From a virus, in the IMG/VR virus record IMGVR_UViG_3300005548_000002, positions 1 to 45,393 of that record: a DNA stretch of 45,393 bases. The stretch is one strand, 5' to 3'. This document shows positions 15,701 through 42,537 of this stretch, piece by piece. The position numbers and the translations under genes were made by a program. The notes under the pieces were generated by a model that did no database searches, was not told the origin of the DNA, and was given only the letters and a program-made list of their open reading frames with translations. Every line of letters starts with the position of its first letter. The stretch's first letter is position 1.

Positions 15701-18700
15701 GTCAAAGGCGGCGACCCGACCGAGTACGAGCAGGCCCTCGCCGAGGCGATGGCGGCACGCAAGGTGAGCCCCAAGGACGTGCAGTCGGGGACGGTCTATG
15801 AGGCCTACCCGAAGGCCGCCTACGACGAGAAGGTCGCCCAGTCCCAGAAATCCCCGATCTCGCCGATCCTTCGCAAGGCGAACTCCCTGACCTCCCGGAC
15901 GATGCTCTCGACCCCGTCCTTCGTCGGTGCGCAGCTCGTGGCGGAAACCGCGCAGGCCATAGCCGATGTGAACCCGGCCCGCATGATGCAAGGCCTCCGG
16001 GCCTACAGCCGTCTGACCCCCGAGCAAAAGCTTCGGATCAGCGGCGTCTCCGGGGAGACCGCCAAGGCGATCTTCTCCCCCGAAGACCTGAAGACGACTC
16101 TCGGCTCCTATGAGTCCAAGCCCTTCAAGGACTCGCTCAGCTTCTTCCGCCGCAACGTCTTCGCCCGCTCGGCGAAAGACATCGTGACGATGAAATGGGC
16201 CGGCGAGGTCAACCGGGCGACCGGCTCATTCACCCGCAGGGCGGTGCTGACCGGCCAGGTGATGCGGGATGTGAACGGTCTCTGGTCGAAAGGACGCAAG
16301 CTCCTAGGCGTGCAGACCGAGATCCAGAAGAAACTGGACGAGGCAACCAAGGGGTTGCACGGGAAGGCCCGCAAGGACGCCGCTCTCGCCTATCTGGCGG
16401 AAAACCCCGATGTCCTTACGCGCTACGGCAAGAGTCTGAACGACGCGATGGGTGGCTGGACGAACCTGACCCGGACGGGCCATGTCCCCGAGAGCTACCG
16501 GGCGGCGGTGCTGGTCTTCTACCCCTTTCTGCGGATGAGCCTCCAATGGCCGCTGAAGTACGCGATCAATCATCCGATCAAGGCCACTGCCCTCACCTAT
16601 CTCGCCGCCGAGAACAACTTCGCCCTGAAGGAAGCCCTCCACGGGGAACCGAGCTTCCTGAACTACGCCCAGATCCCCGTCTACGGAGTGGGACCGAAAG
16701 GCGAAGGGGTGATCATCAACCTCTCCCGCGTGGCCCCGGGAGGGAACGCCCTGACGGAAGCCGTCCAGGGATCGGGCTCTCCCCTTGGGGCATTGCAGCC
16801 TGTCCTTGCCGCTGGGATCACGGGAGCGACGGGGCAGGGTTCCTTCGGTGAAGTCGAAGGGGGGACCGGAGCACATCTGAAAGCCGGGCTGGCACAGATC
16901 CTCGGCCTCTCCCCCTACGTCAGGGCGGCCGACACGCTGCGTGGCGCGAAGGCATCGGGACAGAGCGAATTCGGCATCCTCGCGGGACGGGCCAACATCG
17001 CCGCCGAACCGCTTGCGGCGCTCGAGGCCAAACTGAAGGGCAGCCCCGGGAGCCAGCTCTCGCGCTCCCTGGTCAACCCTTTCCAGCCGATCCCGATCGA
17101 ACGGGCCAGGGACTCGGCGAAGCTCGGCCGCATCCTCCAGACGCTCTCGGCGAACAGCAAGGACAAGCAGAACAAGACCGAGGACAAAGCAACGGTCCTG
17201 AAGATGCGCGCCACCTCCGAAAAGGCCGAGAACGAACTGAACGCCCTCTACAAGAAATACGGCCTGACGAGTGTCGCCAAACTGGGCGAAGAACAGTACA
17301 ACTACTCGCATCCCTATCCCGGCGCAGGGGAAGGGATCTACGGGAAAAAATCCACGAGCGAATCGATCTACGGTCCTTCGTCGGGGGCGGGCTCTTCGAT
17401 CTACGGCGAAGAAAGCGCCCCGAAGATCCCCCACGAAACGAGCGGTGTCAGCCTGAGTCTCCCGGCGGTCCCGGGGCTCAGTTCCTTGACGGGGGCGATC
17501 GGGTCCCTCGTCGGCGGCGAAGCAGCGCAGGCCGCAGAACCGAAAGGGAAAAGACCCAAAGCGAAAGCGTCCACCCAGGCGCCGAGACCCGTACGCCTTC
17601 CTTTCCTGCCGACGGCCGAACAGCAGCGGAACGCCAAGACCGTCCTGAACATCGCGACGGCCCAGCACGCCTCGAAGAAGGAAAAGCTCGCAGCCATCGA
17701 GACGGGCCTCGTCGAGTCCTACGGCTTCAAAAACCTCCCGGTCGGCCAGAACACGACTGGCGAACCTTCGGGCGGCTGGCGTCAGGAACTCCAGACCTAC
17801 TATCCGAACCCTACGAACGTCAAGCAGGGTGCCCGCAACTTCTTCGAAGAGACCAAAACCGACCCGACGATCCCGGGCGGCGGAGGGGAAACGTCAGGCG
17901 AACTCGCGCAGACCGTCCAAGGTTCGGCCTACCCGGAACGCTACGCCGAACACAAGGCCGAAGCAGCCAAGATCCTCAAGGCCTACGAAACCGGCAAAGG
18001 CATAACCGCCGATCTCAGCAAAGGGAAAGGCAACAAGGTCTACGTCCGGGCCGACGCCAAGGGGATGGTCCAGTGGGCGAAGAACGCCGAAGGGACGCAG
18101 GAGGGCAGCTCCAAACAGTTGAGGTGGGCGGCCAACGAGGGCCTAGGTTCATCTCAGCCCTGGTGCGCGAACTTTGTTTCCAACGGCCTCACCCGACGCG
18201 GCGTACCACTGCCCCCCAATCCGAACTACGTTCCCTCCTACGAATCAGAATGGACCGGCGGGAAGAACATCGGGACGAACCTGGCCAAGGCCAAGCCCGG
18301 TGACCTCGTCGCCTTCTCCGGGGAACACATCGGCCTCTACATCGGCAACGGGGAAATGATCTCGGGCAATTACGGCAATCAGGTCGCCCGATCCTCCGTC
18401 GCCGAAGAGGGAAATGCGCTCACCGCGATCCTGCGCCCGAAGTACAAGGGCGGCAAGGTCGCAGTCGCGGCCGGTAGCCCGCTGCCGGGGAGTGCCTTCT
18501 CGGTTGGTGGTGAAGGTGGGGTTCCCGTCCCTGCCGCCATCGCAGTCTCGACCGGCAGTAACACGACCTCCCCCGTCGAACGCGGCAAGCAGAAGACCCA
18601 GAAGACCACGCGCGAACAGTCGCCGCTCAAACGACTCTCGGAAGTCGAACGCATCTTCGCCGGGCAGACGCCCAAGGCGGGAGTCATCCCCGGTTTCGAA

Positions 18701-18787
18701 AGGACCGCACAGCCCCCCACGATGCCCGACTTGGCCGCGATCGGCGAAGCGGTCGAAAAGTCACGCCGGAAACTTCTCGCGGCATAA
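12767..18787 (+). CDS. Giant internal virion/ejection protein with C-terminal CHAP/NlpC-P60-type peptidase domain
   Basis: 2006 aa. 'QPWCANFVS' (Cys codon 18164..18166) and 'GEHIGLYIG' (His codon about 18326). An upstream 'VQGSAYPERY' block at about 17915..17945. Confidence 0.65.
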   Translation: MAGSLGKTRGANSYGPKKKTVAEKLAPGPAATKAAATTPPPSHSGGTSGDLTIPGYTPETPTGAPYSPTEPGHSAEDFATAFAAKERHEAKVRRAEERQRRIVDRYVTRAYSPKQPKSRTFSLGSTSNRVKKAKSNVSATREKLLSHPAVQKANEEGKVVGAKGLTQIRRESKALGPSGPLTHARAEQPGEANKLAKKYPGLTKLEEAKTVKQEEGGLGPGDIGGAISSVASGAKNLYEGIRERENPNPVAKAVGHEVENIAELAKKRLPGNAVPELAHAPTTQELEVASNLAIPSTGGAAARVAEEAGPALAVKALRVLDAAKAAPDAARTLPDVLRSAPAVARQAVKEAPAAARQAVKEAPAVARTAARAAPGVAGRQAAKGAEGGFYSIGGLAALGALHKGGLNVPGGAILEGQAKAIGKDPLKVLSSTANLAPGFLTGAFQLPVAAGASVIQGSPAPLEGALKEQGNFFKHFAETYGSSDASKIEKATLEEGLLPEVLAAPLFAKGVQHLGGGALKGKVADVLDSRRAPLTDASGNVLTHEHGGPVKKGRLRTGEETKLTRTAEQANHRREEAFHAATTNDLTELDYAKRRAEVDKYARKAAGEKVPVRKGLGPKGKDTLYARSPDFIPFLVRAGIDLTKPEAAAKEIAHYAELYKGAKLPHELGASPETLTARDAIDYFQAFPAKLKDKNLAKAVEAYRAMATGEKGLRALSTSERNRYLAYATAHDLPLPEERVPLGARGHTDATTRAGAWEDLKGREKEVKKLRKEAATKREQAKVAAPSRAAKLRREAKDSYAKAKTIEKGRQELLDELKHYTRPWAKANPNAKRIPYDAALEKEFAEEARKGLTERGLNPEPGYVPDSTAVMKAAPDQSATGGKKPLEGAPKINEGYVWKNGISRQGYEHLMNEGILRPVSRAYQWEDWRRFRKERGIAYGGVYQHTGAEWQKAFDQGLLNPRDVALVPKQVVNRLEKNVKGGDPTEYEQALAEAMAARKVSPKDVQSGTVYEAYPKAAYDEKVAQSQKSPISPILRKANSLTSRTMLSTPSFVGAQLVAETAQAIADVNPARMMQGLRAYSRLTPEQKLRISGVSGETAKAIFSPEDLKTTLGSYESKPFKDSLSFFRRNVFARSAKDIVTMKWAGEVNRATGSFTRRAVLTGQVMRDVNGLWSKGRKLLGVQTEIQKKLDEATKGLHGKARKDAALAYLAENPDVLTRYGKSLNDAMGGWTNLTRTGHVPESYRAAVLVFYPFLRMSLQWPLKYAINHPIKATALTYLAAENNFALKEALHGEPSFLNYAQIPVYGVGPKGEGVIINLSRVAPGGNALTEAVQGSGSPLGALQPVLAAGITGATGQGSFGEVEGGTGAHLKAGLAQILGLSPYVRAADTLRGAKASGQSEFGILAGRANIAAEPLAALEAKLKGSPGSQLSRSLVNPFQPIPIERARDSAKLGRILQTLSANSKDKQNKTEDKATVLKMRATSEKAENELNALYKKYGLTSVAKLGEEQYNYSHPYPGAGEGIYGKKSTSESIYGPSSGAGSSIYGEESAPKIPHETSGVSLSLPAVPGLSSLTGAIGSLVGGEAAQAAEPKGKRPKAKASTQAPRPVRLPFLPTAEQQRNAKTVLNIATAQHASKKEKLAAIETGLVESYGFKNLPVGQNTTGEPSGGWRQELQTYYPNPTNVKQGARNFFEETKTDPTIPGGGGETSGELAQTVQGSAYPERYAEHKAEAAKILKAYETGKGITADLSKGKGNKVYVRADAKGMVQWAKNAEGTQEGSSKQLRWAANEGLGSSQPWCANFVSNGLTRRGVPLPPNPNYVPSYESEWTGGKNIGTNLAKAKPGDLVAFSGEHIGLYIGNGEMISGNYGNQVARSSVAEEGNALTAILRPKYKGGKVAVAAGSPLPGSAFSVGGEGGVPVPAAIAVSTGSNTTSPVERGKQKTQKTTREQSPLKRLSEVERIFAGQTPKAGVIPGFERTAQPPTMPDLAAIGEAVEKSRRKLLAA

Positions 18788-23076: not shown

Positions 23077-23225
23077 TCGTCCTCGTCGCGGTCCTCGCTG
23101 TCGGCTGCATCCTCGTCGGGATGGGCATCGAGGCATGGCTCGGCGGTGCTCATACCGGGTCGCTCGAACACGAAGTCTGGATGTTGGAACTGGAGATCCA
23201 GCGCTTGAAGCGGGGCAAGCTGTGA
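23073..23225 (+). CDS. 50-aa membrane peptide
   Basis: ATGA overlap with the upstream gene. TM segment 'MIVLVAVLAVGCILVGMGI'. Confidence 0.35.
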   Translation: MIVLVAVLAVGCILVGMGIEAWLGGAHTGSLEHEVWMLELEIQRLKRGKL

Positions 23226-23692
23226 TCGCCGCCCCCACCGTCGACCGCTTCATGTCCAAGGTCGTCTGGAACGGCGACGAGGACGAATGCTGGACGTGGG
23301 AGGGCGGCACCGGCTCACACGGCTACGGGCAGATCAGCCTCGGCCGGAAGCAGCGCTTGGCCCACCGCGTCTCTTACGAATTGTTCAAAGGGGAAATCCC
23401 CCACGGCTTGGTCGTCGACCACCTTTGCCGCACCCCACGCTGCGTGAACCCTTCTCATCTGGAAGCGGTGACGCAAGGAGAGAACTGCTTGCGGGGCGTC
23501 GGCGCCTGCGCATCTAACGCTCGCAAGACCCACTGCGTTCGCGGCCATGAGTTCACCCCTGAGACGACCTACATCGTCCCTGCGACTGGTCACCGCACTT
23601 GCACCGTCTGCCGTGATGCCCGGAAGGCACGTTGGGACGCCATGCGTAAGTCCGAAATCGAAAACGCCCGACTGAAACGAGAGGGGAAATGA
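23222..23692 (+). CDS. HNH homing-type endonuclease (HNH_3-like), paralogue of 8359..8808
   Basis: 'RFMSKV...CWTWEGG....GYGQIS....RLAHRVSYE' and 'DHLCR.P.CVNP.HLE.VT..EN'. GTG start overlaps the upstream TGA. Confidence 0.8.
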   Translation: MIAAPTVDRFMSKVVWNGDEDECWTWEGGTGSHGYGQISLGRKQRLAHRVSYELFKGEIPHGLVVDHLCRTPRCVNPSHLEAVTQGENCLRGVGACASNARKTHCVRGHEFTPETTYIVPATGHRTCTVCRDARKARWDAMRKSEIENARLKREGK

Positions 23693-23850: not shown

Positions 23851-24029
23851 TGGCCAAGGACCTCCTACAGGACTTCGAGGCCCGGGTGGACCTCAACAAC
23901 TTCGACCCCGCCCTGATCCCGTTGCAGAACGACGCCCTCAAGAGGGTCAAGGAGGCACGGGACAACGGCACCGAAGAGGACATCCGCGATGCCGTGAGGG
24001 TCGCCAAAGAGTTGGGAGCCCTTCCGTGA
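23850..24029 (+). CDS. Hypothetical protein
   Basis: The ATG shares one base with the upstream TGA. 59 aa. Confidence 0.45.
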   Translation: MAKDLLQDFEARVDLNNFDPALIPLQNDALKRVKEARDNGTEEDIRDAVRVAKELGALP

Positions 24030-24889
24030 GCGAGACCTACACCGTCCGTGACGTACGCGAGGGGAAGGTGAAGCCCAACCCTCACGGCGGCGGCAACCTC
24101 CAGGCCTTCTACGTGGACTTCGTACGCCCTGACGGCAAACTGGAAATGGGCGTCTACTGGCAGCGCAAGGAGGGCAACGCCCCGCAGCCGGAGGAATCTG
24201 TCTTCGGAGACATCACCGAAGGTGACTACGGCCCTCGCTTCAAGCAGGCGAAAGGTGGTCCTTCACACAACGAATCTTCCACGGGCAATGCTCCGGGGTC
24301 GTCCAGCGGCAGGACTCCGGGTTCTGGACCCGGCAACGGTGGTTCGAATCCATCCCCCGGAACTAACGGGACGGACTGGGAGGTCAGGAACGCCGAAATC
24401 CGCAGGCAGCACTCGCAGGAGATGAGTGTTCGGGTCCATGGCTACGTCGGTGCCTTCTCCGCTGAGCTAAATCAGGCGGGGATCTCGGACCTCACGAAAT
24501 CGAGTATCGCCGTTCTCGCCGACTGGTTCGACCAGGACGCCATAGCCGCCGGCCAGAAGGCGAGTCAGGGCGCAGCATCGACGAGTGGCTCACCACACTC
24601 GTCGCCTCCTCCCCAGGGTGCTGCCCCTGACTCGTTTTCAGCCGGGGAAGAACACCAATGGCTGGAAAACCTCCTGATCCAGGGAGGGGCATCAACCTAC
24701 GGCGCAGGGAAGCTCGCCAACTTCGCATTGGAGGAGTTGAGCCCGGAGAACCTCAAGAAATGCGAGGCCCTCCTGAGCAACCTGGACTCCCAGGTCGAAG
24801 GCCGTGAACGGCTCGAAACGAGCTACACGAAGGCCAAGGGTGAACCGGTCCCGCAGGTCGACCCCATCGACGACGACCTTCTGTTCTGA
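24026..24889 (+). CDS. SSB-like protein candidate (N-terminal domain, Gly/Ser/Pro linker, acidic C-terminal tip)
   Basis: 287 aa. The C-terminus 'DPIDDDLLF' resembles the SSB 'DDDIPF' tip, and the middle is low-complexity. Confidence 0.35.
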   Translation: MSETYTVRDVREGKVKPNPHGGGNLQAFYVDFVRPDGKLEMGVYWQRKEGNAPQPEESVFGDITEGDYGPRFKQAKGGPSHNESSTGNAPGSSSGRTPGSGPGNGGSNPSPGTNGTDWEVRNAEIRRQHSQEMSVRVHGYVGAFSAELNQAGISDLTKSSIAVLADWFDQDAIAAGQKASQGAASTSGSPHSSPPPQGAAPDSFSAGEEHQWLENLLIQGGASTYGAGKLANFALEELSPENLKKCEALLSNLDSQVEGRERLETSYTKAKGEPVPQVDPIDDDLLF

Positions 24890-25948: not shown

Positions 25949-26310
25949 CGCAGCGCGACCGCATCCTCCGCGCGCTCGAGCTCGCCGGCCCCAAAGGGGT
26001 TCGCTCAGACGCCTTCATCAAAGACTTCATGCCCCGAGCAGCAGCCCGCGTACAGGAGTTGAAAGACGAGGGCTACGACATCACGTCGGAGCGTGAGGGA
26101 AAGTTTTGCCGCTGGACTCTTAACGTCGGAAGCAGCACCGAAGGTCGGGACCAGGCTGAACCGGGCGGCACCTATCAGCCAGTCGATGCGACCTCCGGTG
26201 TTGCTTCGGGCGTTGAAGCCCTGGTGCCTTCCTCGTCTCCCCAGTCTCCCGGGGAAAGCACCACGGGCTCCGCCCGGTCTTCGATGTACGAGACGTGGGT
26301 GGAGGACTGA
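25945..26310 (+). CDS. Winged-helix DNA-binding protein candidate
   Basis: 'RDRILRALELAGPKGVRSDAF...ARVQELKDEGYDI'. Confidence 0.45.
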   Translation: MTQRDRILRALELAGPKGVRSDAFIKDFMPRAAARVQELKDEGYDITSEREGKFCRWTLNVGSSTEGRDQAEPGGTYQPVDATSGVASGVEALVPSSSPQSPGESTTGSARSSMYETWVED

Positions 26311-26891
26311 TGGCAGTCTCCAAACGGCTCCGCTACGAGGTTATGCGCCGGGACGGTTTCCGCTGCCGCTACTGCGGGTTCTCGGCCAGTGAGACCGAAC
26401 TTCAGGTCGATCACGTCCAGCCGATCGCCCTAGGCGGCGGCGATGAGCCGGAGAACTTGGTCACGTCCTGCGCTGATTGCAACGCCGGGAAGTCGGCGAG
26501 CAGTCCCGACCAGGCGATTGTCGAGAGCGTAGCTGACGATTCGTTGCGTTGGGCCAAGGCACTAGAGGAAGCCGCGGCGATCAAAGCGGCTGAGCGAGCG
26601 AAACAAACCCGGTACACCAAGGCCATCGATAAAGCATGGTCGGCGTGGACAAACGGCGCCGACGAACCGCTTCCGCGTCCGCGAGACTGGAAGCAGTCGC
26701 TTGAACAATTCCGTAACTCCGGCCTAGACCAGAAGACTGCCCTTCACATGGTCGATGTGACCATGAACCGACAGGGCCTCCTCAATAACAAGGCTTGGAA
26801 GTACTTCTGCGGTTGCTGCTGGAACGTGATCCGCGAGCAGCAGGCAATCGCTGCGGCATTGATCGAGCGCGACGAGGCAGGGCAGGAGTGA
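26310..26891 (+). CDS. HNH endonuclease (classic HNH/HNHc)
   Basis: 'RDGFRCRYCG......LQVDHVQP.ALGG...PENLVTSCADCNAGK'. Confidence 0.8.
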   Translation: MAVSKRLRYEVMRRDGFRCRYCGFSASETELQVDHVQPIALGGGDEPENLVTSCADCNAGKSASSPDQAIVESVADDSLRWAKALEEAAAIKAAERAKQTRYTKAIDKAWSAWTNGADEPLPRPRDWKQSLEQFRNSGLDQKTALHMVDVTMNRQGLLNNKAWKYFCGCCWNVIREQQAIAAALIERDEAGQE

Positions 26892-29022: not shown

Positions 29023-29219
29023 GCACGGTCACGCAACTGGAGCCTTGGGTCCCCCTCACCGAGCTCGCGAACCACTGCGATTGCTCAGTCCGCTTCCTCA
29101 AGTACCGGGTTGCCGAAGGGATGCCCTCGGCCATCGTCTGCGGCAAGCGGAAGGTTCAACTGCGGGCGGCAATAGATTGGCTCGAAAAGGAGGGCCACAT
29201 CGTGAGGAGTGCTGCCTGA
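29019..29219 (+). CDS. xis: Excisionase / MerR-like HTH protein
   Basis: 'VPLTELANHCDCSVRFLKYRVAEGMP....GKRKV.L..AIDWL'. Directly upstream of int and overlapping it. Confidence 0.55.
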   Translation: MSTVTQLEPWVPLTELANHCDCSVRFLKYRVAEGMPSAIVCGKRKVQLRAAIDWLEKEGHIVRSAA

Positions 29220-30250
29220 TGGCGATTCGCAAAGTCAAGACCAAGAAGCTCGGCATCCGCTACGGGGTCCGGGTGCATGTCGGCGACGGCAAATACGAGA
29301 TGCTCGGGACCTTCCCGTCGAAGGCCGCCGCCAAGGAGGTCGAAGCGAAGTGGATGTTGCGGACGCGAGGGCGCCAGCGGCGGACGGGGAAAGACTGGGC
29401 CGATTTCTACCTGGAGGGCTACGAGGAACGAGTCAAGCGCTCGAGCTACCTCACCGCCTGCACCGCGATCAACTGCTGGCTGAAGACGTTCGGCAGTCGA
29501 ACCCTCGCCAGCATCGAACCGACTGAGGCGGAGACCTGGGCGCGAGCAAATCGCTGGGCGGTGCCGCCCGTCGTGACGATGCTGAACAACGCAGTCAAGA
29601 AAGACGCTCTCGACCGCAACCCTTTCGTCGGCCTGTCAAGTCGCAGCCAGGGTCGAAGGTTCAACGAGCCGTTAAGCGTGGCCGACCTTGAGCGCCTGGC
29701 CGCCGCCGCCGAGAAACATCACGGGTCCATGTTCAAGGCTTTCGTCCTCTTCACGGCGTACACGGGCATGAGGGTGGGGGAGGTCTTCGCGCTCAAGTGG
29801 GAAGACATCGATTTCACCGAGGGGAAGATCCTCGTCCGTCGCCGTCTCTATCGCTCTGAACTGGATCTGCCGAAGGGAAACAAGACGCGGGAGATCGCTC
29901 TGTTCCCTGAGGCCAGGGACGCCATCGCCGCGCTCGACCGCGAGACGGCATGGGTCTTCCTGGCCAAGCGGGGTGGCCAACTGGCGCAATCGACGCTGAA
30001 TCACTACTGGCAGAAGATCGTCGCGACGTTCGGTCGGGAGATCGATCCCCACGAGCTACGGCACTTCTGCGGCCATCATCTCTACGTCACCAAGGGGGTC
30101 CCCGAGCGCATCGTCGCCGCCCAGCTAGGCCACAACGACGGCGGCAAGTTGGTGCGGGAGCTCTACGGTCACGGAGACCACGGCGCGATCGATGAACTGA
30201 AGCGTCTCTACGGCGAGAACGTGGTCCCCTTCGAGAGGAAAGCCTCGTGA
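29219..30250 (+). CDS. int: Tyrosine integrase
   Basis: 343 aa. 'YTGMRVGE' (Arg), 'HELRHFCGH', 'LGHNDG', 'LYGHG' (Tyr). The N-terminal arm-binding-like 'GIRYGVRV' block is present. Confidence 0.85.
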   Translation: MAIRKVKTKKLGIRYGVRVHVGDGKYEMLGTFPSKAAAKEVEAKWMLRTRGRQRRTGKDWADFYLEGYEERVKRSSYLTACTAINCWLKTFGSRTLASIEPTEAETWARANRWAVPPVVTMLNNAVKKDALDRNPFVGLSSRSQGRRFNEPLSVADLERLAAAAEKHHGSMFKAFVLFTAYTGMRVGEVFALKWEDIDFTEGKILVRRRLYRSELDLPKGNKTREIALFPEARDAIAALDRETAWVFLAKRGGQLAQSTLNHYWQKIVATFGREIDPHELRHFCGHHLYVTKGVPERIVAAQLGHNDGGKLVRELYGHGDHGAIDELKRLYGENVVPFERKAS

Positions 30251-30449: not shown

Positions 30450-30857
30450 ATGAAGGCCTCGGTCTATCTCGCCTACAAAGGCGACAAGCTGCTCTACGTC
30501 GGGATCACCGGCACGGGGACCAAGCGCCTGTCTCAGCATCGGCGGAACAGCGAGTGGTGGCTCAAGGCCGATCGCATCGAACTCGAGCACTACCCGACGC
30601 GCTCGCGGGCGATGGCGCGAGAGGCCGACCTGATCGAAGAGAGGAAGCCACGCTTCAACAAGAAGCCTGGCCATCGACGCTGTCGCGAGGATCTCATGTC
30701 GCTCGACGAGCTCTACGCCGGAATGTCTGTCTGGCCTAAGGAGCGCCTTCTCAAATGGGCTGAAAAGGGAAAGCTGCCGGTCGCCGACTGGATCGAAGGC
30801 GCGCCCCTCTTCGACGAAGAAGAGATTCTCAGTTGGGTCAGAGGTGAGGCCTCGTGA
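30450..30857 (+). CDS. GIY-YIG nuclease with C-terminal HTH-like region
   Basis: 'VYLAYKGDKLLYVGIT....KRLSQH' and 'E..LI...KPRFN'. Confidence 0.7.
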   Translation: MKASVYLAYKGDKLLYVGITGTGTKRLSQHRRNSEWWLKADRIELEHYPTRSRAMAREADLIEERKPRFNKKPGHRRCREDLMSLDELYAGMSVWPKERLLKWAEKGKLPVADWIEGAPLFDEEEILSWVRGEAS

Positions 30858-31978: not shown

Positions 31979-32388
31979 CCCCCCGTCCCCCTCGGTTCCC
32001 CACTGAAAGCAAAAACACGACGAAGGAGAACAACGATGTTCGAAGTGAGCACCGAGGAAGTCGCGCGTCTTTTCGCGGACGCTCATGCCTACGCCCAGAA
32101 CGGGTTCTTCGACGAGGCGTCAATGACGGCGGAGCAGGCCCAGGAGATGTGGGAGGAGATTCGGCCACCCGATTCCGAGGAGCAGCCCGCATAAGCCGTC
32201 CCCCTCGGTTCCCGAAAAGGAAGGAGGCGTGGCCTGAGAACCAGAACGATCTCCTAGGCAAGCTCCAGGCGTCCTTCGAACGGGACTGCGAATGCGGTCA
32301 CGCCCTGGCGGATCACCGTTCGCGTTCATCCAACTGTGAAGCGGCCGGCTGCGAATGCGAGCTGTACGAACCGGAGCACGTCGCGTGA
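31975..32388 (+). CDS. Cys/His-rich small protein gene carrying an in-frame 213-bp insert flanked by direct repeats
   Basis: ATGA overlap with the upstream gene. Codons 10..80 look like out-of-frame filler. The 3' part (32214..32388, 'CECGH...CEAAGCEC') has no start codon of its own. Confidence 0.4.
   Translation: MTPRPPRFPTESKNTTKENNDVRSEHRGSRASFRGRSCLRPERVLRRGVNDGGAGPGDVGGDSATRFRGAARISRPPRFPKRKEAWPENQNDLLGKLQASFERDCECGHALADHRSRSSNCEAAGCECELYEPEHVA
31983..32000 (+). repeat. 18-bp direct repeat, copy 1 (CCGTCCCCCTCGGTTCCC)
   Basis: Identical to 32196..32213. The offset is 213 bp. Confidence 0.9.
32036..32194 (+). CDS. 52-aa acidic protein encoded inside the 213-bp insert
   Basis: AAGGAGA RBS 7 nt upstream of the ATG. 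MFEVSTEEVARLFADAHAYAQNGFFDEASMTAEQAQEMWEEIRPPDSEEQPA. The stop lies 1 nt before repeat copy 2. Confidence 0.5.
   Translation: MFEVSTEEVARLFADAHAYAQNGFFDEASMTAEQAQEMWEEIRPPDSEEQPA
32196..32213 (+). repeat. 18-bp direct repeat, copy 2
   Basis: Identical to 31983..32000. Confidence 0.9.
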
Positions 32389-32866: not shown

Positions 32867-33144
32867 GCCCTGAACAGCAGTCAGGTAGCGAGAGGGTGGA
32901 GTACGCGTCTTGCAGTTGCGGCACGCCGAATTGCCCGGAGCTTGGCTGGCCCCACGAATGGGACCCGATCGCAGCGGGGGATAGCTGCTCCGCCTCGGTT
33001 CCTCCAGCGATCTTCACCTGCTCCATCGAGCAACTGAAGGCCGGCTGGCAACCGCCCGTCCACAAGGTGACGGAGCCTTACGTCCGCTGGGGATCGGGTT
33101 ACGGCTGCGTCGAGTGCGTCGAAGCGGAGTCCGGCGATGACTGA
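32863..33144 (+). CDS. Hypothetical Cys-rich protein
   Basis: ATGA overlap with the upstream gene. Its 3' end overlaps the tnpB start by 8 nt. Confidence 0.45.
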   Translation: MSPEQQSGSERVEYASCSCGTPNCPELGWPHEWDPIAAGDSCSASVPPAIFTCSIEQLKAGWQPPVHKVTEPYVRWGSGYGCVECVEAESGDD

Positions 33145-34336
33145 GCACACCGAGAGCAAGGTGAATCGGATTTACCGCTACAGGCTCTACCCGTCGCGCC
33201 GACAGGCGGCGGCGCTCGAGGCCCAACTCGCCTGGGCCTGCGATCTCTACAACGCGGCGCTCGAGCAGCGCCGCACCGCGTTCCGCGATTTCGGCGTCTC
33301 GGTGCGACTCAAGGATCAGCAGCACGAGCTGACCGCCCTGCGAGGTGACGGCCCGCAAATGAACTACGTCTGCCAGGAGATGGTCCTCCAGCGGTTGAAC
33401 CTCGCCTTCGAAGCGTTTTTCCGGCGCACGAGGAACGGCGAGAGGCCGGGCTTCCCTCGATTCAGAGCAAAATCCCGGTTCAACACGCTCGCCTGGCGCA
33501 GGCGCCAGGGCGGGGCAGCGATCGTCAACGACCGCCTGCGCATCCAAGGCGTCGGCCACCTCAAGGTCAAATGGCATCGCGACCTCCCGAGTGACCCCAA
33601 GCAGACGCGAATCACTCGCAAGAACGGCCGCTGGTACGCCGCGTTCACCGTGGAGGTCGAGCGTCAGCCGCTCACCCCTACGGGTCGTGAAATCGGCGTC
33701 GACCTGGGCGTCCGGCAGTTCGCCACGCTCTCCGATGGTTCACATGTCGTCGGTCCGCGTCCTGGCCGAGTAGCGGCCCCCGCGATCCGGCGGGCCCAGC
33801 GTAAGGTCGCCCGTCGCCACAGAGGTAGTCACCGCCGCCGCAGGGCCGTCGCTGAACTTGCACGCCGTCGCGAGCGGGAGGCGAACCGCCGGCTCGATGC
33901 CGCCCATAAGGCTGCGAAGGGCTTGGTTAATGACTTCGACCTGATCGCCGTCGAGGATCTCCGCCCCGCCAACATGGTCCGGGGCAACCGCGGTCTCGCC
34001 CGCGAAATCAGCGACCAGGGCTGGTCCACCTTCTTGCAGTGCCTCGAAGACAAGGCTGAAAGCGCCGGTCGCCGAGTAGTCCGCGTCAACCCCCGGAACA
34101 CGTCACGTTGCTGCTTCGAATGCGGTGCCGTCGATCGTGACTCCCGCAAGGGGCCGCGCTTCGTCTGCACGACGTGCGGCCACACGGATGACGCTGACGT
34201 AAACGCCGCCAAGAACATCTTGGCCTTGGCCCGGACGGGGCCGTCAGGCGCCAACGCGAATCTAGTTCTCGCGTTGCCTGAGAAGCCGCAGCAGCGGAGT
34301 CGTCACTTCGGCTCAGGAGCAAAGGGGATCGCATGA
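33137..34336 (+). CDS. tnpB: TnpB (IS200/IS605-family OrfB, RuvC-type RNA-guided nuclease)
   Basis: 'RIYRYRLYPS' N-terminus. 'GVDLG' (Asp), 'IAVEDL' (Glu), CxxC...CxxC zinc ribbon, 'DADVNAAKNI' (Asp). 399 aa. No adjacent tnpA. Confidence 0.85.
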   Translation: MTEHTESKVNRIYRYRLYPSRRQAAALEAQLAWACDLYNAALEQRRTAFRDFGVSVRLKDQQHELTALRGDGPQMNYVCQEMVLQRLNLAFEAFFRRTRNGERPGFPRFRAKSRFNTLAWRRRQGGAAIVNDRLRIQGVGHLKVKWHRDLPSDPKQTRITRKNGRWYAAFTVEVERQPLTPTGREIGVDLGVRQFATLSDGSHVVGPRPGRVAAPAIRRAQRKVARRHRGSHRRRRAVAELARRREREANRRLDAAHKAAKGLVNDFDLIAVEDLRPANMVRGNRGLAREISDQGWSTFLQCLEDKAESAGRRVVRVNPRNTSRCCFECGAVDRDSRKGPRFVCTTCGHTDDADVNAAKNILALARTGPSGANANLVLALPEKPQQRSRHFGSGAKGIA

Positions 34337-35078: not shown

Positions 35079-35374
35079 ACCCCACCACCAGAGAAGAGGG
35101 TTGGCCGGTTCTGTACGTCCGAGAGGACCGCTTCCGGGGCGCAGTCGCTGGCTATCACGTTCAGGAGCGCGCAACCAAAGGCGGGGGTGAGCAGCAGACC
35201 TACCACCCCGAGTCGGCTCCCAACGTCTTGACGAAGGATGAGGCACGGCTGGTGACGACGATCGCAGCGGAGTACTACGGGACCCACGGGATGACTGGCG
35301 AGTTGGTGGCCACCGACGACATCCGCTCGTTCTTCGACCGACTCAAGAGCTGGGCCGAAGAGGAGGGGCACTAG
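35075..35374 (+). CDS. Hypothetical protein
   Basis: ATGA overlap with the upstream gene. 99 aa. Confidence 0.5.
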   Translation: MNPTTREEGWPVLYVREDRFRGAVAGYHVQERATKGGGEQQTYHPESAPNVLTKDEARLVTTIAAEYYGTHGMTGELVATDDIRSFFDRLKSWAEEEGH

Positions 35375-35872
35375 ATGGCGACCTATAAGGAGGAAGCTGT
35401 CTACGCCGCCGAGCGCGCTGGGCGGTTGGTCGACCCGACCTGCAACGTCTGCGGTGTCGACTACGTCAGCGACTACTCGGGGCCGTGCCAAGAGCCGGGC
35501 TGCCGAGGGACCGTCGATATCTGGCCGGACTCGATCGCTCGCGCCGCCCTCGACGCAGCCGAGCCCTTCATCCGAGAGGCGGCCCGCAAGGAGATAGAGG
35601 ACCGGCTACTGAGTGACGAGGCGGTCGATGCTTTCTTCGTCGCGTTCGGCAATCCGACCGATCCCGAAGAGTGGGAGAGCCGCGAGGAGATGGCGGCCGA
35701 ACGGCAGGAAATTCGCAAGGCCCTCCGCGCCGCCCTCGCCACCCTGTCCCCATCCGAGGACACGACCGAGGAATGCAACTGCGGCGTCGAGAAGGAGCGT
35801 TCTCTTCGGCATAGCCGCTTCTGCCCGCTCTACGGTGTTCCCGCTGAGGATAAGGAGCCAATCGATGGCTGA
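35375..35872 (+). CDS. Hypothetical protein with C-terminal CxC..H..FCP knuckle
   Basis: 165 aa. 'CNCGVEKERSLRHSRFCPLY'. Ends with 'EPIDG'. Confidence 0.5.
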   Translation: MATYKEEAVYAAERAGRLVDPTCNVCGVDYVSDYSGPCQEPGCRGTVDIWPDSIARAALDAAEPFIREAARKEIEDRLLSDEAVDAFFVAFGNPTDPEEWESREEMAAERQEIRKALRAALATLSPSEDTTEECNCGVEKERSLRHSRFCPLYGVPAEDKEPIDG

Positions 35873-36245
35873 GTCTCACTGCACCTGCCGGTACGCCGTG
35901 GCGACCTACAGCACGCTCCACGAACGCTGGTGCCCGCTCTGGAAGCCCGGCCCAGAAGATACGCCCATGGCATCCGAGGGATCGGGTGCGCCCCTACCTG
36001 AGGCCGCGTGTGAACGGTGCGGGGGCGAGCGGTGGGGCGATCCTGCCGAGCCGGTGGCCAATTCAAACGGCCAGCGATATGTCGAGTGCCTGAAGTGCGG
36101 GCACCGGAAAATTCCACGCCGAAACCCGACCGAGAGCAATGCGGTGACGGACGGTCCACTGGCGTTTCCGGGCACCCACGAACTGCCGGAGTTCGGCGAA
36201 CTGCCTACCCCGAAGCCCCTCACCGAGGACCCAATCGATGCATGA
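35865..36245 (+). CDS. Hypothetical protein with N-terminal CxC..H..WCP knuckle
   Basis: 'CTCRYAVATYSTLHERWCPLW'. Ends with 'PTPKPLTEDPIDA', which is encoded by 34-bp repeat copy A. Confidence 0.5.
   Translation: MAESHCTCRYAVATYSTLHERWCPLWKPGPEDTPMASEGSGAPLPEAACERCGGERWGDPAEPVANSNGQRYVECLKCGHRKIPRRNPTESNAVTDGPLAFPGTHELPEFGELPTPKPLTEDPIDA
36203..36236 (+). repeat. 34-bp perfect direct repeat, copy A (GCCTACCCCGAAGCCCCTCACCGAGGACCCAATC)
   Basis: Identical to 38514..38547. The offset is 2311 bp. Confidence 0.9.
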
Positions 36246-36705
36246 CCTGACCGACGACGACCGTGCACGGCTGGAGCAAATCGCCCGGCAGATCGAGTAC
36301 ACGATCAAGGACGCCGACTGGCCCGAGTTCGAGGAGAACGATCCAGCCGACCCGATGCGAGACGTCCGCTTTCTCCGCAAGCTGGCCCAGCAGTCCTCTG
36401 GGGACCAGGGGCTACGGAGTGAGGACGCAATCGAGGCGGCAGCAGCCTGGCTGAGAGAAGCCGAGCAGGCGCACCCCGGCCCGATGGGAGCGCCGTACGC
36501 CCAGCTTCAACCCCCGCAGCGAAAGGAGCCGTACCGCAAACGCGCCCGCTCGCTGCTCGCCTTCGTCCGCCCAGCTCTCGAAGAGGAGATGCGGAAGCGC
36601 GTCCGCGCCATCCCCAAGGAAGACGGCATCGCGGCCGGGTTTCTTCGTCGCCGAACCGTCGAAGCAGCGCTCTCCGCCCTCACCCACGACAAGCAGGAGG
36701 ACTGA
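36238..36705 (+). CDS. Hypothetical protein
   Basis: 155 aa. The start lies inside the upstream gene end (ATGCATGA). Confidence 0.5.
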   Translation: MHDLTDDDRARLEQIARQIEYTIKDADWPEFEENDPADPMRDVRFLRKLAQQSSGDQGLRSEDAIEAAAAWLREAEQAHPGPMGAPYAQLQPPQRKEPYRKRARSLLAFVRPALEEEMRKRVRAIPKEDGIAAGFLRRRTVEAALSALTHDKQED

Positions 36706-36706
36706 G

Positions 36707-37033
36707 ATGCCTGACAAGGACACGCAATGGCCTGAGGTCGTGCTGTTCCGTCACGAGGCAAAGACGCGACCCAAGTCGATTGCCCAGAAGCACGTCGTGG
36801 CAGACGGCGAGAAGTTCGAACGCTATCTACCGATCTCGTCCATCAGGGCAGCGCTGCTGAGCGATGAGGCTGTTGAAGCAGCGGCGCGCGCTCCGTTCGA
36901 CCACCACGGCTCCGACGAATACTGGGACGTGCTTGAAGACATGGAGCGCGTGGCGATCCGCGAGGACGCCCGGCTGATCCTCGAAGCCGCCCTGAACCGG
37001 GCCTTCCCAGACACCAACGGAGAGCACCGATGA
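36707..37033 (+). CDS. Hypothetical protein
   Basis: 108 aa. The 'LLSDEAVEAA' block also occurs in 35375..35872. Confidence 0.5.
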   Translation: MPDKDTQWPEVVLFRHEAKTRPKSIAQKHVVADGEKFERYLPISSIRAALLSDEAVEAAARAPFDHHGSDEYWDVLEDMERVAIREDARLILEAALNRAFPDTNGEHR

Positions 37034-37407
37034 GCCGTCAGAGAATCCTCGTCTGTGGAAGCCGCGACTGGAGCAACGAGAAAGTGATTCGCGACCGGCT
37101 CAACGAATCCCTGAGCGCGATCGTCATCCACGGCGGAGCAGACGGCGCAGACAAGATGGCGGCGAAAGCTGCCTATGCCCTCTCGATGCACTCCGCCGAA
37201 ATGAGACCACTCTGGGGCCAGTTCGGCAAGCAAGCCGGCTACCTCCGCAACTGCGCCATGCTCGACCTTGAGCCGGATCTCGTCATCGCTTTCAGCACTG
37301 GCTCTCGTGGCACTCAGATGACCATCGACGAAGCCCGCAAGCGCGGCATCCCGGTCGAGATCCACGGCACGGAACTGGTCATCCGGGACAAAGGAGAGCA
37401 CCGATGA
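37030..37407 (+). CDS. DUF2493 / SLOG-family (YspA-like) nucleotide-binding protein
   Basis: 'ILVCGSRDW', 'VIHGGADGADK' and 'VIAF..GS.GT' Rossmann-like signature. Confidence 0.6.
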   Translation: MSRQRILVCGSRDWSNEKVIRDRLNESLSAIVIHGGADGADKMAAKAAYALSMHSAEMRPLWGQFGKQAGYLRNCAMLDLEPDLVIAFSTGSRGTQMTIDEARKRGIPVEIHGTELVIRDKGEHR

Positions 37408-37592
37408 GTGACCGGCGACGCGAAATCATCGAATGGGTCAATCGCGAGCTGCGGAAAGGCCCGACTGATCTCGAAGCGTGGGAGGCGTTCTACCTGCTCA
37501 GTCTTCCCCCGATCGTCGAGGACCGTCACGAGTACAACCGGATTCGTCGTCGCCTCTTGGACGAAGGCGAAACCTGTTGCTGGGAGCGCTGA
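37404..37592 (+). CDS. Hypothetical protein
   Basis: ATGA overlap with the upstream gene. 62 aa. Confidence 0.45.
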   Translation: MSDRRREIIEWVNRELRKGPTDLEAWEAFYLLSLPPIVEDRHEYNRIRRRLLDEGETCCWER

Positions 37593-37621
37593 ACGGTGGC
37601 CGAAAGAAAGAGAGAGCAGCA

Positions 37622-38314
37622 GTGAAGCTGAAGGCGTCAGAGCAGTTGAAGTTGAGTCGTGAGGAGCGCAAAGCGATCTACCGCGGTGAGCGCAAGCTCA
37701 GGCGCCTCGAGCGGCCTGACATCAACGACGGCGACACGTTGATCGTCGCTTGGTCGCGCGGTGGAAAGCGAGTTGTGGATCGCGAGACCGGTGAAGTGGC
37801 GGAAGTCGTGCGCCGCCCGACGATCTGGCTGAAGTTCAAGGAGCCGGAAGAGCTCGAGGACGGCGAATGGCTCCTGAAGTACGCGATCCACGATGAACGT
37901 GAAGTGACCCGGATGCTCGGTTCGGGCGGATCTTCCAACTCCGAACGGGAATTGGGCCTGAACACCCGTTGGAGGCGCCCTGAGAGCGTCCCTGACCGAA
38001 AGAAACAGGCTGCGAGGCTGGAGCAGTTCACCCCTGAGACCGAGCGTGGCTACGTGAGCGGAGGGCGTGTGGTCGACCACCTGACCTGTCTCGGCGACGA
38101 TGACCTGGCCATCCTCAAAGCCGATGCAGACGCACGCTGGATGGCTGATCACCCTGAGGAGGCCAAGGCGGAGAAGCTGCGCCGGCTCAGTAACAAGGCA
38201 CGGCGCCTACAGCGCGAAGCGGAGCGGAAGAACGTCGATATCACCGCGGATCTGGAGGTCTTCATCGCCAGAACCCGCGAAGCCATCGTTGATGCCAAGA
38301 ACGTATCCGTCTGA
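37622..38314 (+). CDS. Hypothetical protein
   Basis: GTG 37622 follows an AGAGAGAG-rich RBS region. 230 aa, charged. Confidence 0.5.
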   Translation: MKLKASEQLKLSREERKAIYRGERKLRRLERPDINDGDTLIVAWSRGGKRVVDRETGEVAEVVRRPTIWLKFKEPEELEDGEWLLKYAIHDEREVTRMLGSGGSSNSERELGLNTRWRRPESVPDRKKQAARLEQFTPETERGYVSGGRVVDHLTCLGDDDLAILKADADARWMADHPEEAKAEKLRRLSNKARRLQREAERKNVDITADLEVFIARTREAIVDAKNVSV

Positions 38315-38401
38315 CGGTGCATAATTCAGATGCGCTTCCTTTGCTGATCGTCGGTTCTCGATTCCAGCGCGGCCCGTGGCCCGAGCGTTTGCGGTAGATG
38401 C

Positions 38402-38584
38402 ATGCCTGATTCCCTTCCCCGCACCGCGCAAGAACAGCTCGCCTATTGGCTTGAGTTCGGCGTCGACAAGTTCGTCTACGTCATCAAGGCGAAGGATGAT
38501 CCGCCGATCAAGGGCCTACCCCGAAGCCCCTCACCGAGGACCCAATCAACCCTGCGCGCCAAGAAGGCCGCTTCTACCTCATAG
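38402..38584 (+). CDS. ORF that runs out of frame into 34-bp repeat copy B (truncated or frameshifted)
   Basis: The first 38 codons look coding ('...LAYWLEFGVDKFVYVIKAKDDPPIKG'). The tail 'LPRSPSPRTQS...' is the wrong frame of the repeat. Confidence 0.3.
   Translation: MPDSLPRTAQEQLAYWLEFGVDKFVYVIKAKDDPPIKGLPRSPSPRTQSTLRAKKAASTS
38514..38547 (+). repeat. 34-bp perfect direct repeat, copy B
   Basis: Identical to 36203..36236. Confidence 0.9.
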
Positions 38585-38591
38585 GACCAGC

Positions 38592-38813
38592 ATGACCAAG
38601 ACCATAGAGAGACGAAGGAATGGCTCAGGCTGGCCTTCCGACGTGATCGGAGCGACTCAGAGGCTCGAGCGCATCAGCGCCCTGGAAGACGCGCTCGAGT
38701 ACATCCCTCCGCCCGGCGAGGACATCGTCATCAGCTACCACTACGGCGGCGAGGAACGCTTCAAGTCCCACGCGCAGGTACGTACGCGGCTCGCAGAGGT
38801 CAAGGCTTCCTGA
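38592..38813 (+). CDS. Hypothetical protein
   Basis: 73 aa. Its ATG forms an ATGA overlap with the stop of a start-less frame (38500..38595). Confidence 0.5.
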   Translation: MTKTIERRRNGSGWPSDVIGATQRLERISALEDALEYIPPPGEDIVISYHYGGEERFKSHAQVRTRLAEVKAS

Positions 38814-39370
38814 TGAGCGACATCCAAAGACGTAAACCGGTCGAATGGGCCGTGTCGGAGCGTGGCAGGGAGATCAGGCACTCCGTCCAGGAGGTCGACC
38901 TGGCCCTGAAGCTGATGGCCCTGAACGGCGGCAAGACGATGGTCACCGAAACCATGCTGCTGGCAGAGAACATCCGGGTCCACCGCAACACCCTGCGGGT
39001 CTGGAGAGACGAGACCTTCCCTAGGAGATACGCCCAGATCAGGGCAGAGATGGGCCAGGAGGTCACCGAGGAGGTGGCGGGCAGAGCACTGGAGCGCGCC
39101 CTCGAGGCAGACGACGCCACCCACGCCTACATCAAGGAAGCCAAGGCCAAGGTCGGTCAGGTCTCCCCGGCGCACCTGGCCAAGAACGCCCAGGCCCTCG
39201 CAAACGCCGAGAGCCAACTCGTCCAGACCGCCCAGCTCCTCAGAGACAGACCGACCTCCATCACCGAAGACAGATCCCTCGGAGACTTGGTAGGCACGCT
39301 GGTCAAACTCGGAGTGGCAGAAGCAGACGGTGTGATCGACGGAGAAGTCGTGGGAGAAGAAGATGTCTAG
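38813..39370 (+). CDS. Small terminase subunit candidate
   Basis: 185 aa. HTH-like N-terminus, helical centre and acidic tail. It is the last sizeable gene before terL, although it does not directly abut it. Confidence 0.4.
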   Translation: MSDIQRRKPVEWAVSERGREIRHSVQEVDLALKLMALNGGKTMVTETMLLAENIRVHRNTLRVWRDETFPRRYAQIRAEMGQEVTEEVAGRALERALEADDATHAYIKEAKAKVGQVSPAHLAKNAQALANAESQLVQTAQLLRDRPTSITEDRSLGDLVGTLVKLGVAEADGVIDGEVVGEEDV

Positions 39371-39566
39371 CTACGAGATTTTCAGAAGTCCCAAGGATGG
39401 GCAGTTCTACTGGCACCTGGAGGCTGACAACGGCGAGGTCGTCGCGCAGTCAGAGGGCTATACCCGGAAGGTCGATGCTCAGCGTGGGGCGCAGGACGCT
39501 CATCGCGCAGCCCTGAGCGCCTCCCAGCCGTTGATCACAGTTCGCAAGGTCAAGAAACGGTCCTAG
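39363..39566 (+). CDS. DUF1508 (YegP-like) protein
   Basis: 'YEIFRSPKDGQFYWHLEADNGEVVAQSEGYTRKVDAQRG' matches the YegP repeat pattern. Confidence 0.6.
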   Translation: MSSYEIFRSPKDGQFYWHLEADNGEVVAQSEGYTRKVDAQRGAQDAHRAALSASQPLITVRKVKKRS

Positions 39567-42094: not shown

Positions 42095-42537
42095 CGAGGC
42101 TCGCGGGCAAGCCCGCCTACTGCGCCTCCTGCTACCAGCAGGACCCCGTCCGCTACGTGGACTTCGAGGCCGCCTATGACGGCCCCGTGATCCCGGGTGC
42201 CCCGGCGCATATCGCCATCGACGACCTGATCCTCTGTGAGAACTGCCTGAACCAGGCCTTCGCCCTCCTCGACCCCCAGGGGAAGGACGAGACGATCGCC
42301 GAGCTGGTGCAGATCGTCAAGGACCAGCAGGCGGAGATCGCGGCGAAGGACAAGATGCTCACCGGCGCCACGGCGACGATCGAGGAGCTGGTGGATCACC
42401 CGATCACGAAGCCTCCGGGCAAACCCGTGCTGGTCGGTGTGGACCCCGAGGTCCGCAAACAGATCACCAAGGCCCGCTATGAGCGCAACGGGACCAGTGC
42501 GGCGCCGAAGAAACAGAAAGAGAAGGCCACGGCATGA
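42091..42537 (+). CDS. Hypothetical protein (Cys pairs plus coiled coil)
   Basis: GTGA overlap with the upstream gene. 'CASC...CENC'. Confidence 0.45.
   Translation: MTRLAGKPAYCASCYQQDPVRYVDFEAAYDGPVIPGAPAHIAIDDLILCENCLNQAFALLDPQGKDETIAELVQIVKDQQAEIAAKDKMLTGATATIEELVDHPITKPPGKPVLVGVDPEVRKQITKARYERNGTSAAPKKQKEKATA

Follow-up and report, generated by a model that had tools for sequence, protein, structure and literature searches.

Repeat-flanked gene segments in phages

In mycobacteriophages, a comparison of Island3 gp67/gp68 with Brujita revealed an inserted gene between two copies of a ~50-bp sequence that is the 3′ end of a gene (Pope et al., 2011, PLoS One 6:e16329, PMC3029335). The authors attributed the difference to recombination between short identical sequences and considered deletion and intermolecular gain undecidable (PMC3029335). 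Here, we describe a related arrangement in the virus genome IMGVR_UViG_3300005548_000002 of the IMG/VR database, the whole 45,393-nucleotide stretch of which was analysed and is referred to as the window; it represents a genome that is complete at 45,283 bp, its ends overlapping by 110 nucleotides (nt). A 34-bp sequence, GCCTACCCCGAAGCCCCTCACCGAGGACCCAATC, occurs in it as two exact copies on the plus strand, copy A (36203–36236) and copy B (38514–38547), offset by 2311 bp and identical at 34/34 positions. The repeat is probably a recombination scar at a phage mosaic junction, copy B being the remnant 3′ end of a second gene of the type that ends in copy A (gene 35865), joined to a truncated open reading frame (ORF), ORF 38402. 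We assign this reading a probability of roughly 0.55.

As in Island3/Brujita, a gene-sized segment lies between short direct repeats (34 bp against about 50 bp), and the gene upstream natively ends in one of the copies. A repeat edge coincides here with a homology breakpoint. In Island3/Brujita, however, both occupied and empty states are present in sequenced relatives and the segment consists of one gene, whereas here it comprises five genes and a truncated sixth, the empty state was not found in the collections searched (listed below), and the left edge of copy B is evidently an illegitimate joint inside another gene.

Two further models of phage mosaicism, and one class of site-specific systems, offer comparisons. 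Module exchange at boundary sequences goes back to the modular theory of Susskind and Botstein and is also associated with the HK620 paper. Short conserved boundary (“linker”) sequences have been proposed to mediate such exchange in lambdoid phages, as referred to by Pope et al. (refs 21 and 22 of PMC3029335). The window resembles that situation in that short identical repeats recur at gene boundaries (CCAATCGATG, a 16-mer flanking the SLOG gene, and an 11-mer in a related contig, L001, with its empty site in another, L015); genes would be gained or lost through unequal crossover between them. Unlike lambdoid boundary sequences, copy B lies 45 nt upstream of the gene boundary and abuts a truncated gene, and the enrichment of boundary repeats gave P=0.25. 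In the model of Hendrix and Hatfull, illegitimate recombination is the main source of mosaicism and of moron acquisition, again as referred to by Pope et al. (refs 23 and 24 of PMC3029335). The homology-free join inside a gene, the putative gain of an ORFan (gene 38592) beside the packaging genes, and the carrying along of a remnant of the donor's upstream gene would all fit this model, although its usual examples leave no repeat, while the remnant here happens to repeat 34 bp of a gene which the recipient has as well. As in attL/attR, lox/FRT, and attC systems, identical short sequences surround a segment, and 34 bp is also the length of the minimal loxP and FRT sites. Unlike those sites, the 34-mer has no inverted arms (4/13) and no adjoining recombinase, an attB-like empty site was not found in the collections, and the block finishes at one end in a broken gene.

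The locus is most likely a new example of known phage gene shuffling rather than a new mobile cassette or mechanism. It offers a base-resolved case in which one joint is clearly non-homologous and inside a gene and the other is at a domain or gene boundary; joints so well resolved are rare. Such a case helps to weigh random illegitimate joining followed by selection against exchange at short conserved boundary sequences, since the locus shows signs of both.

The 34-bp repeat and its support in the assemblies

The features on which the analysis relies are as follows.

36203–36236, plus strand: repeat copy A, exact match in a native coding context, encoding PTPKPLTEDPI, the linker-like C-terminus of gene 35865
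38514–38547, plus strand: repeat copy B, exact match; starts exactly at the homology breakpoint, with no translatable gene in the frame of copy A
35865–36245, plus strand: gene 35865 (126 amino acids, aa), a small zinc-ribbon-like protein whose family is very rare; its final DA and stop follow copy A, with DA as the two codons past it
38402–38513, plus strand: 5′ part of ORF 38402 (112 nt, 37 codons), a resident small gene cut off at the copy B joint
38548–38594, plus strand: tail of 15 codons, NPARQEGRFYLIGPA and stop, following copy B in the frame of gene 35865; its TGA overlaps the ATG of gene 38592
38592–38813, plus strand: gene 38592 (73 aa), an ORFan in a variable slot between the gene of the ORF 38402 family and the terminase module
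36238–38314, plus strand: the five complete genes of the block, 36238–36705, 36707–37033, 37030–37407 (SLOG/YAcAr), 37404–37592, and 37622–38314 (gene calls of the ENA contig)

The perfect direct repeat that the initial annotation had reported was recovered exactly and is present in both assemblies considered. No third copy occurs in the genome, even with 3 mismatches allowed, and two matches to the 34-mer were obtained in 0 of 100 dinucleotide-preserving shuffles. In a repeat scan of the window, it was the sole perfect internal repeat of at least 20 nt. Immediately outside either end of the copies, identity is random on both flanks. The exact 34-mer had 0 matches in viral contigs, and the version with synonymous positions freed had 0 in metagenome and genome contigs. 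The scan also listed, as family D10, a 28-nt direct repeat with 96% identity at 7811–7838 and 42256–42283, 34 kb apart.

The source contig was assembled with MEGAHIT at k=141 (ena:ERZ27251944 k141_5945483), a value that far exceeds 34, and therefore a 34-bp repeat cannot confuse its graph. The second assembly was the k=31 Logan assembly of SRR5451461, in which the region is divided among three contigs: the upstream contig (L017) ends at repeat position 30, the contig of the block (L006) starts with repeat positions 5–34 and ends with positions 1–30, and the third (L004) starts with positions 5–34 and then runs into gene 38592. Thus, the contigs break only inside the 34-mer, as is expected of a true repeat longer than k, and therefore all four joints exist in the reads. 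The large k of the first assembly and the presence of all joints in the k=31 contigs are not what an assembly-induced duplication would leave.

Origin of the two repeat copies

Copy A encodes the end of gene 35865 (PTPKPLTEDPI-DA-stop), as had been stated from the sequence, and comparison with the only relative showed this to be a real gene end. The family of gene 35865 has 2 members among 5.8 billion proteins, the gene itself and P0002 (233 aa, viral contig L001). The alignment of P0002 to gene 35865 continues through the peptide of the repeat (…ELPEFGELPTPKPLTED against …ELPEFGELAQPKPATQE, i.e. …ELPTPKPLTED), and DNA identity to L001 is 70% over 36009–36202, 15/34 (44%) inside the repeat, and 8/34, a random value, just after it. 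Because the protein homology passes through the repeat and the DNA identity falls from 70% to 44% and then to random, copy A can be regarded as the native 3′ end of gene 35865. P0002 runs ~100 aa beyond the linker into a C-terminal domain that has no counterpart in gene 35865 of the window. Gene 36238 was considered as the split-off C-terminal domain of long homologs of gene 35865 and was rejected (blastp E=3.5, hhalign E=0.54).

Copy B, by comparison, interrupts another gene. In an exhaustive search, ORF 38402 had a single clear homolog, P0005 (90 aa, contig L015; E=9e-13), and no further homologs were found in metagenome and viral contigs. The first 37 residues of the two proteins are identical at 33 positions, and beyond them the sequences are unrelated. 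At the DNA level, L015 matches 38402–38513 at 84% over 112 nt, with 22/24 matches in the final 24 nt. Past 38513, the last base ahead of copy B, the homology is lost and does not return, with 5/34 matches across the repeat and 12/44 across the tail. ORF 38402 is therefore truncated, as the initial annotation had suspected from the sequence.

A codon-usage log-likelihood test, trained on this genome's own genes, placed the change of coding frame at the same joint. Between 38402 and 38513, frame 2, the frame of ORF 38402, scored +26.6, per codon as strong as control genes. Inside copy B, the same frame was disfavoured (−7.1) and frame 1, that of gene 35865, scored +3.05; over the repeat and the tail together, the values were −10 for frame 2 and +6.97 for frame 1, and the latter corresponds to 0.28 per codon, equal to the body of gene 35865. 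Judged from the homology and the codon usage, copy B starts on its left at a breakpoint within a resident gene, where the coding frame switches. Because L015 keeps the order of a gene of the 37622 family followed by the 90-aa homolog of ORF 38402, the sequence to the left of copy B is considered resident. In L015, P0005 lies directly downstream of a gene starting with MKLKKTD, the family to which gene 37622 weakly belongs.

The earlier statement that copy B lies in no convincing gene in the matching frame needs some refinement. Across copy B, the frame of gene 35865 has no start codon and is open only from 38500 to 38594, which agrees with it; however, JGI/IMG called a 60-aa gene at ORF 38402 that includes copy B, in a frame that codon usage disfavours there. 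That gene was not called on the ENA contig, and the 60-aa ORF was not on record in an exact look-up in the contig index. For annotation, 38402–38584 is best treated as a truncated pseudogene, and 36203–38547 should not be treated as a mobile element.

Two other interpretations of the joint were discarded. A programmed −1 frameshift from frame 2 of ORF 38402 into frame 1 was rejected, as no slippery heptamer of the type X XXY YYZ is present at the overlap of the two frames (38500–38516), where the sequence reads GAT CCG CCG ATC AAG GGC CTA; P0005 carries on in frame 0 with unrelated sequence, which also counts against a frameshift product. A resumption of L015 homology after copy B, proposed from a 14/18 match near the start of gene 38592, is at chance level by our estimate.

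At its N-terminus, ORF 38402 has a motif (LPRTAQEQLAYWLEFGVDKF) that is weakly similar to a unit repeated 5–6 times in tandem in two unrelated long proteins, P0006 (420 aa; E=4e-6) and P0007 (714 aa; E=1e-5). This likeness could be due to a small domain in common or to composition.

Gene order in related phages

In L001, the homolog of gene 35865 is followed by five small genes and a gene of the 37622 family. L015 has a protein with the C-terminal domain of P0002, two small genes, a gene of the 37622 family, and the homolog of ORF 38402. Judged from these two contigs, the architecture from gene 35865 to ORF 38402 is ancestral for this phage group, with differing small genes in between. Because this order is common to L001 and L015, the block would not be simply imported cargo. 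Gene 37622 was linked to its positional counterparts by blastp (2e-5 to L008), with a link chain on to L011, L014, and L001. Within the block, gene 37030 has a Pfam YAcAr domain (E=1.1e-10) and belongs to phrog_289.

What distinguishes the window from its relatives is the repeat together with the tail and gene 38592. Gene 38592 matches only itself among the 5.8 billion proteins and is absent from L001, L008, L011, L014, and L015. The incoming piece is thus more likely to have been the repeat, the tail, and gene 38592 than the bracketed block.

A mosaic junction as the probable origin

The end of gene 35865 encodes a linker between domains. DNA homology between L001 and L015 starts ~10 nt into the equivalent of the repeat, and three continuations follow the linker KP.T[QE][ED] in this family: the C-terminal domain, DA and stop, and the tail. 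Because of that starting point and these different continuations, the linker itself is probably a recurrent mosaic junction.

In the proposed course of events, copy B and the 15-codon tail would be the leftover 3′ end of a second gene of the 35865 type, located directly upstream of gene 38592. This gene could have been a paralog since lost, or the allele carried by a close phage relative during co-infection; we infer both its existence and the order of events. An illegitimate join would have attached the remnant to codon 37 of the resident ORF 38402, removing the 3′ part of that gene and placing gene 38592 in the variable slot upstream of the terminase module, and a further crossover at another site, this one homologous, would complete the exchange. 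The illegitimate joint would then correspond to the left edge of the repeat, and the right edge would be the point at which the two gene ends already differed (DA and stop versus NPARQ…). Both junctions, the truncation of ORF 38402, and the frame switch are visible in the window.

When the repeat was collapsed in silico, the product ended in …TEDPINPARQEGRFYLIGPA and a stop codon, with its TGA within the ATGA of gene 38592. This fusion and its overlap, pointed out in the initial annotation, are real, and the collapsed arrangement is plausible as the parental form. Used as a query, the 139-aa collapsed product matched only the protein of gene 35865 itself and P0002, and no match carried the tail. 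A collapsed relative was not found in viral, metagenome, or genome contigs or among the 5.8 billion proteins, for a family that has one or two known relatives. The two 34-bp copies form a latent substrate for homologous deletion of 2311 bp, which is predicted to recreate the parental 35865–38592 arrangement. The resulting deletion or empty-site joint would read GGCGAACT, the 34-mer, and AACCCTGC, whereas a circle or tandem duplication of the block would read GATCAAGG, the 34-mer, and GATGCATG.

Several observations weigh against a second gene of the 35865 type. The 15-codon tail by itself carries a neutral codon signal (+0.46), and neither the tail nor gene 38592 has any homologs in the protein search or in the contigs of the relatives. 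A genome with the postulated parent, i.e. a gene of the 35865 type ending in …NPARQEGRFYLIGPA and stop followed by gene 38592, was not found. Two events are required, an earlier divergence exactly at the right edge of the repeat and then an illegitimate join, and no clear microhomology is seen at the joint, the only shared sequence nearby being CCGAA. All three frames are open past copy B: frame 0 leads into gene 38592 itself, frame 2 to a stop at 38582, and frame 1 to the stop at 38593. Because any frame would give an interpretable product, the in-frame ATGA collapse is weak evidence, and the claim that such a fusion is unlikely by chance was overstated, all frames being open to within ~10 nt of the start of gene 38592. 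In addition, the membership of gene 37622 in the syntenic family relies on a transitive chain (hhalign E=0.004, probability 8%), and there is one comparator per side, L001 and L015, both of them distant (70–84% DNA identity).

Alternative explanations

The rival that survives best is an insertion of the block as a cassette. The ancestral gene 35865 would have run through the repeat into the tail, coupled to gene 38592, and the 2311-bp block would have entered at the 34-mer by Campbell-type or site-specific recombination and could excise again, much as proposed in the initial annotation. A perfect, sharp-edged repeat is the expected trace of a single crossover between a circle and its target, the collapsed product is in frame with an ATGA overlap, and the tyrosine integrase, TnpB, and three homing-type nucleases of this genome could supply breaks or recombination. 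The k=31 graph, in which the repeat is longer than k, fits the integrated form and the circle plus empty site equally, as the two look alike in it; the k141 contig, however, proves the integrated form, and evidence of a circle or of an empty site was not found. On its right side, the block finishes in a truncated resident gene rather than a cassette end, and the order of gene 35865, the 37622 family, and ORF 38402 in L001 and L015 points to an ancestral architecture. The in-frame argument is, as noted, weak. Overall, an acquired or excisable cassette is unlikely: neither a collapsed relative nor evidence of excision nor an att-like structure was found.

The structure of the repeat and the gene content of the block bear on the same question. 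The best internal dyad of the 34-mer is 4 bp, and in a lox-like test its first 13 nt match the reverse complement of the last 13 at 4/13 positions; an inverted recombinase-binding core of the att, lox/FRT, or attC type is thus absent from it. The only integrase of the genome, a tyrosine integrase at 29219–30250, is about 6 kb upstream rather than in the block. Domain searches of the block genes found only the YAcAr/SLOG domain and no transposase or recombinase domain, in agreement with the earlier remark that a dedicated recombinase is not obvious nearby, and no inverted repeats were found at the block ends. Transposon target duplications are typically 2–15 bp. The length of 34 bp, the absence of a transposase from the block, and the lack of terminal inverted repeats uphold the earlier view that the repeat is not a transposon target-site duplication. 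A 12-mer of the repeat at 29052, near the integrase, was considered as a clue to an att site and rejected, as it encodes the same in-frame PLTE peptide.

Two HNH endonucleases and one GIY-YIG endonuclease are encoded among 23135–23692, 26295–26891, and 30450–30857, all distant from the repeat. Together with the tyrosine integrase, they form an unusually rich set of break-making and recombining enzymes for one 45-kb genome, given the local gene flux. A full-length TnpB (33137–34336; OrfB_IS605 and Cas12f1-like_TNB domains, phrog_506, E=2e-87) lies among the early genes, outside the block, and no TnpA was seen near it.

Next in order, and also improbable, copy B could be a 34-bp templated “filler” for which copy A served as the source when a break or deletion in ORF 38402 was repaired. 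Both edges would then be repair joints, the tail would be the old upstream region of gene 38592, and a second gene of the 35865 type would not be needed. One complex event in one genome would suffice. It would account for the sharp edges and perfect identity of the copies and for a tail that is neutral in coding signal and without homologs. Shifted by 3 nt, L015 matches the repeat at 18/35 positions past the joint, a hint of local similarity able to prime template switching. On the other hand, the right edge of the source copy falls exactly at a gene boundary, 1 nt before the start of gene 36238 and 2 codons before the stop of gene 35865, which would be a coincidence here and is expected of a pre-existing mosaic boundary. 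L015 homology does not return after the patch, and to our knowledge, templated insertions as long as ~34 bp are poorly documented in phages.

It is doubtful, and clearly improbable at present, that the 34-mer and the shorter boundary repeats described below are dedicated recombination sequences of these uncultured high-GC phages, which would add or drop genes at defined joints, perhaps with the help of the phages' own nucleases. If they were, this would be a phage-borne cassette exchange that operates without a classical integrase site, and the 2.3-kb block would be gained and lost reversibly in populations.

Selection of the 34-mer as two identical functional copies, e.g. as a binding site of a phage protein or a hot spot for programmed loss of the gene block, is very improbable. 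The copies are perfect in a genome otherwise without a long repeat, and the region's largest non-coding gap, located where early genes give way to packaging genes, contains copy B. However, the 34-mer has no dyad symmetry and no further partial copies, it is not conserved in L001 (44% identity), and searches of the viral, metagenome, and genome collections did not recover it, even when synonymous positions were left free. In the 277-nt gap around copy B, no promoter-like or terminator-like site, Rfam family, or unusual RNA fold was found.

The least credible explanation is that the second copy is an assembly error or a two-strain chimera; the DNA is of metagenomic origin and a single run may underlie both the ENA and the Logan assembly, but 34 bp is far below k=141, L006 holds both the joint of the block end with the repeat and that of the repeat with the block start, and a chimera could not create the 38513|38514 joint unless the reads carry it.

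Short repeats at gene boundaries

Shorter direct repeats flank individual genes in and next to the block.

35858–35867 and 36231–36240, plus strand: CCAATCGATG, a 10-mer flanking gene 35865, each copy across a stop/start overlap
37019–37034 and 37393–37408, plus strand: GGAGAGCACCGATGAG, a 16-nt maximal exact repeat flanking the SLOG/YAcAr gene 37030–37407 across the ribosome-binding site and ATGA overlap

The 10-mer CCAATCGATG occurs at these two sites only, with both strands searched, and the genes upstream of both copies end in E/D-P-I-D-G/A and stop. The genes upstream of the two GGAGAGCACCGATGAG copies end in GEHR and stop, and this pair resembles the trace of an indel of one gene, similar in style and located inside the block. 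A comparable case in the relatives is a 194-nt gene (65 aa) of L001, which is flanked by an 11-nt direct repeat, GATGAAGCTGA, at 7574–7584 and 7768–7778; in L015 (1509–1558), the GATGAAGCTGA site is exactly collapsed, giving an occupied/empty pair within the same phage group. Genome-wide, the enrichment of boundary repeats was not significant (2 observed against 0.96 expected, P=0.25), and they serve as a supportive anecdote only. Thus, the suggestion that boundary motifs mediate module shuffling stands as far as the recurrence of such repeats goes, but not as to their enrichment.

The 10-mer GAGTTCGGCG does occur exactly twice, at 36189 and 38453, preceding both copies of the repeat as had been observed. 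It was considered as the mark of a longer ancestral duplication and rejected: the copy at 38453 is native ORF 38402 sequence, where L015 has GAGCAAGGCG, and its match to 36189 is coincidental.

Genes 35375 and 35865 share a further likeness. The C-terminal end of the former (35790–35872) and the N-terminal end of the latter (35865–35960) have a common motif, C.C...H.R[FW]CPL[YW]..P.ED (pairwise E=0.007), and both genes terminate in [ED]PID[GA] and stop. This suggests a small-scale duplication or the reuse of a module between neighbours. Elsewhere, a perfect 18-mer, CCGTCCCCCTCGGTTCCC, is found at 31983–32000 and 32196–32213, in two consecutive intergenic gaps and each time just past a gene end; a regulatory role is conceivable, or it may be one more boundary repeat.

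Other features of the phage genome

The phage lineage is essentially uncharacterised. A megablast search of 35300–39400 against cultured phages gave no match. The large terminase subunit (TerL) is at most 33% identical to that of any cultured phage, the nearest being Microbacterium and Arthrobacter phages at about 28–29%. A TerL search of genome contigs for prophage relatives or a host found none, and 185,579 species genomes were without a prophage relative. For gene 38813, a pattern scan of viral contigs returned nothing; loci anchored on TerL recovered the gene, with the region between unrelated in all of them. A 178-aa gene of L015 was considered as its counterpart and found no support.

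In the structural region, a single ORF of 2006 aa occupies 12767–18787. A tRNA-Gln gene (anticodon CTG) was identified at 24292–24363 by ARAGORN and Rfam, and because it sits inside the mechanically called ORF 24026–24889, that ORF is probably not a gene.

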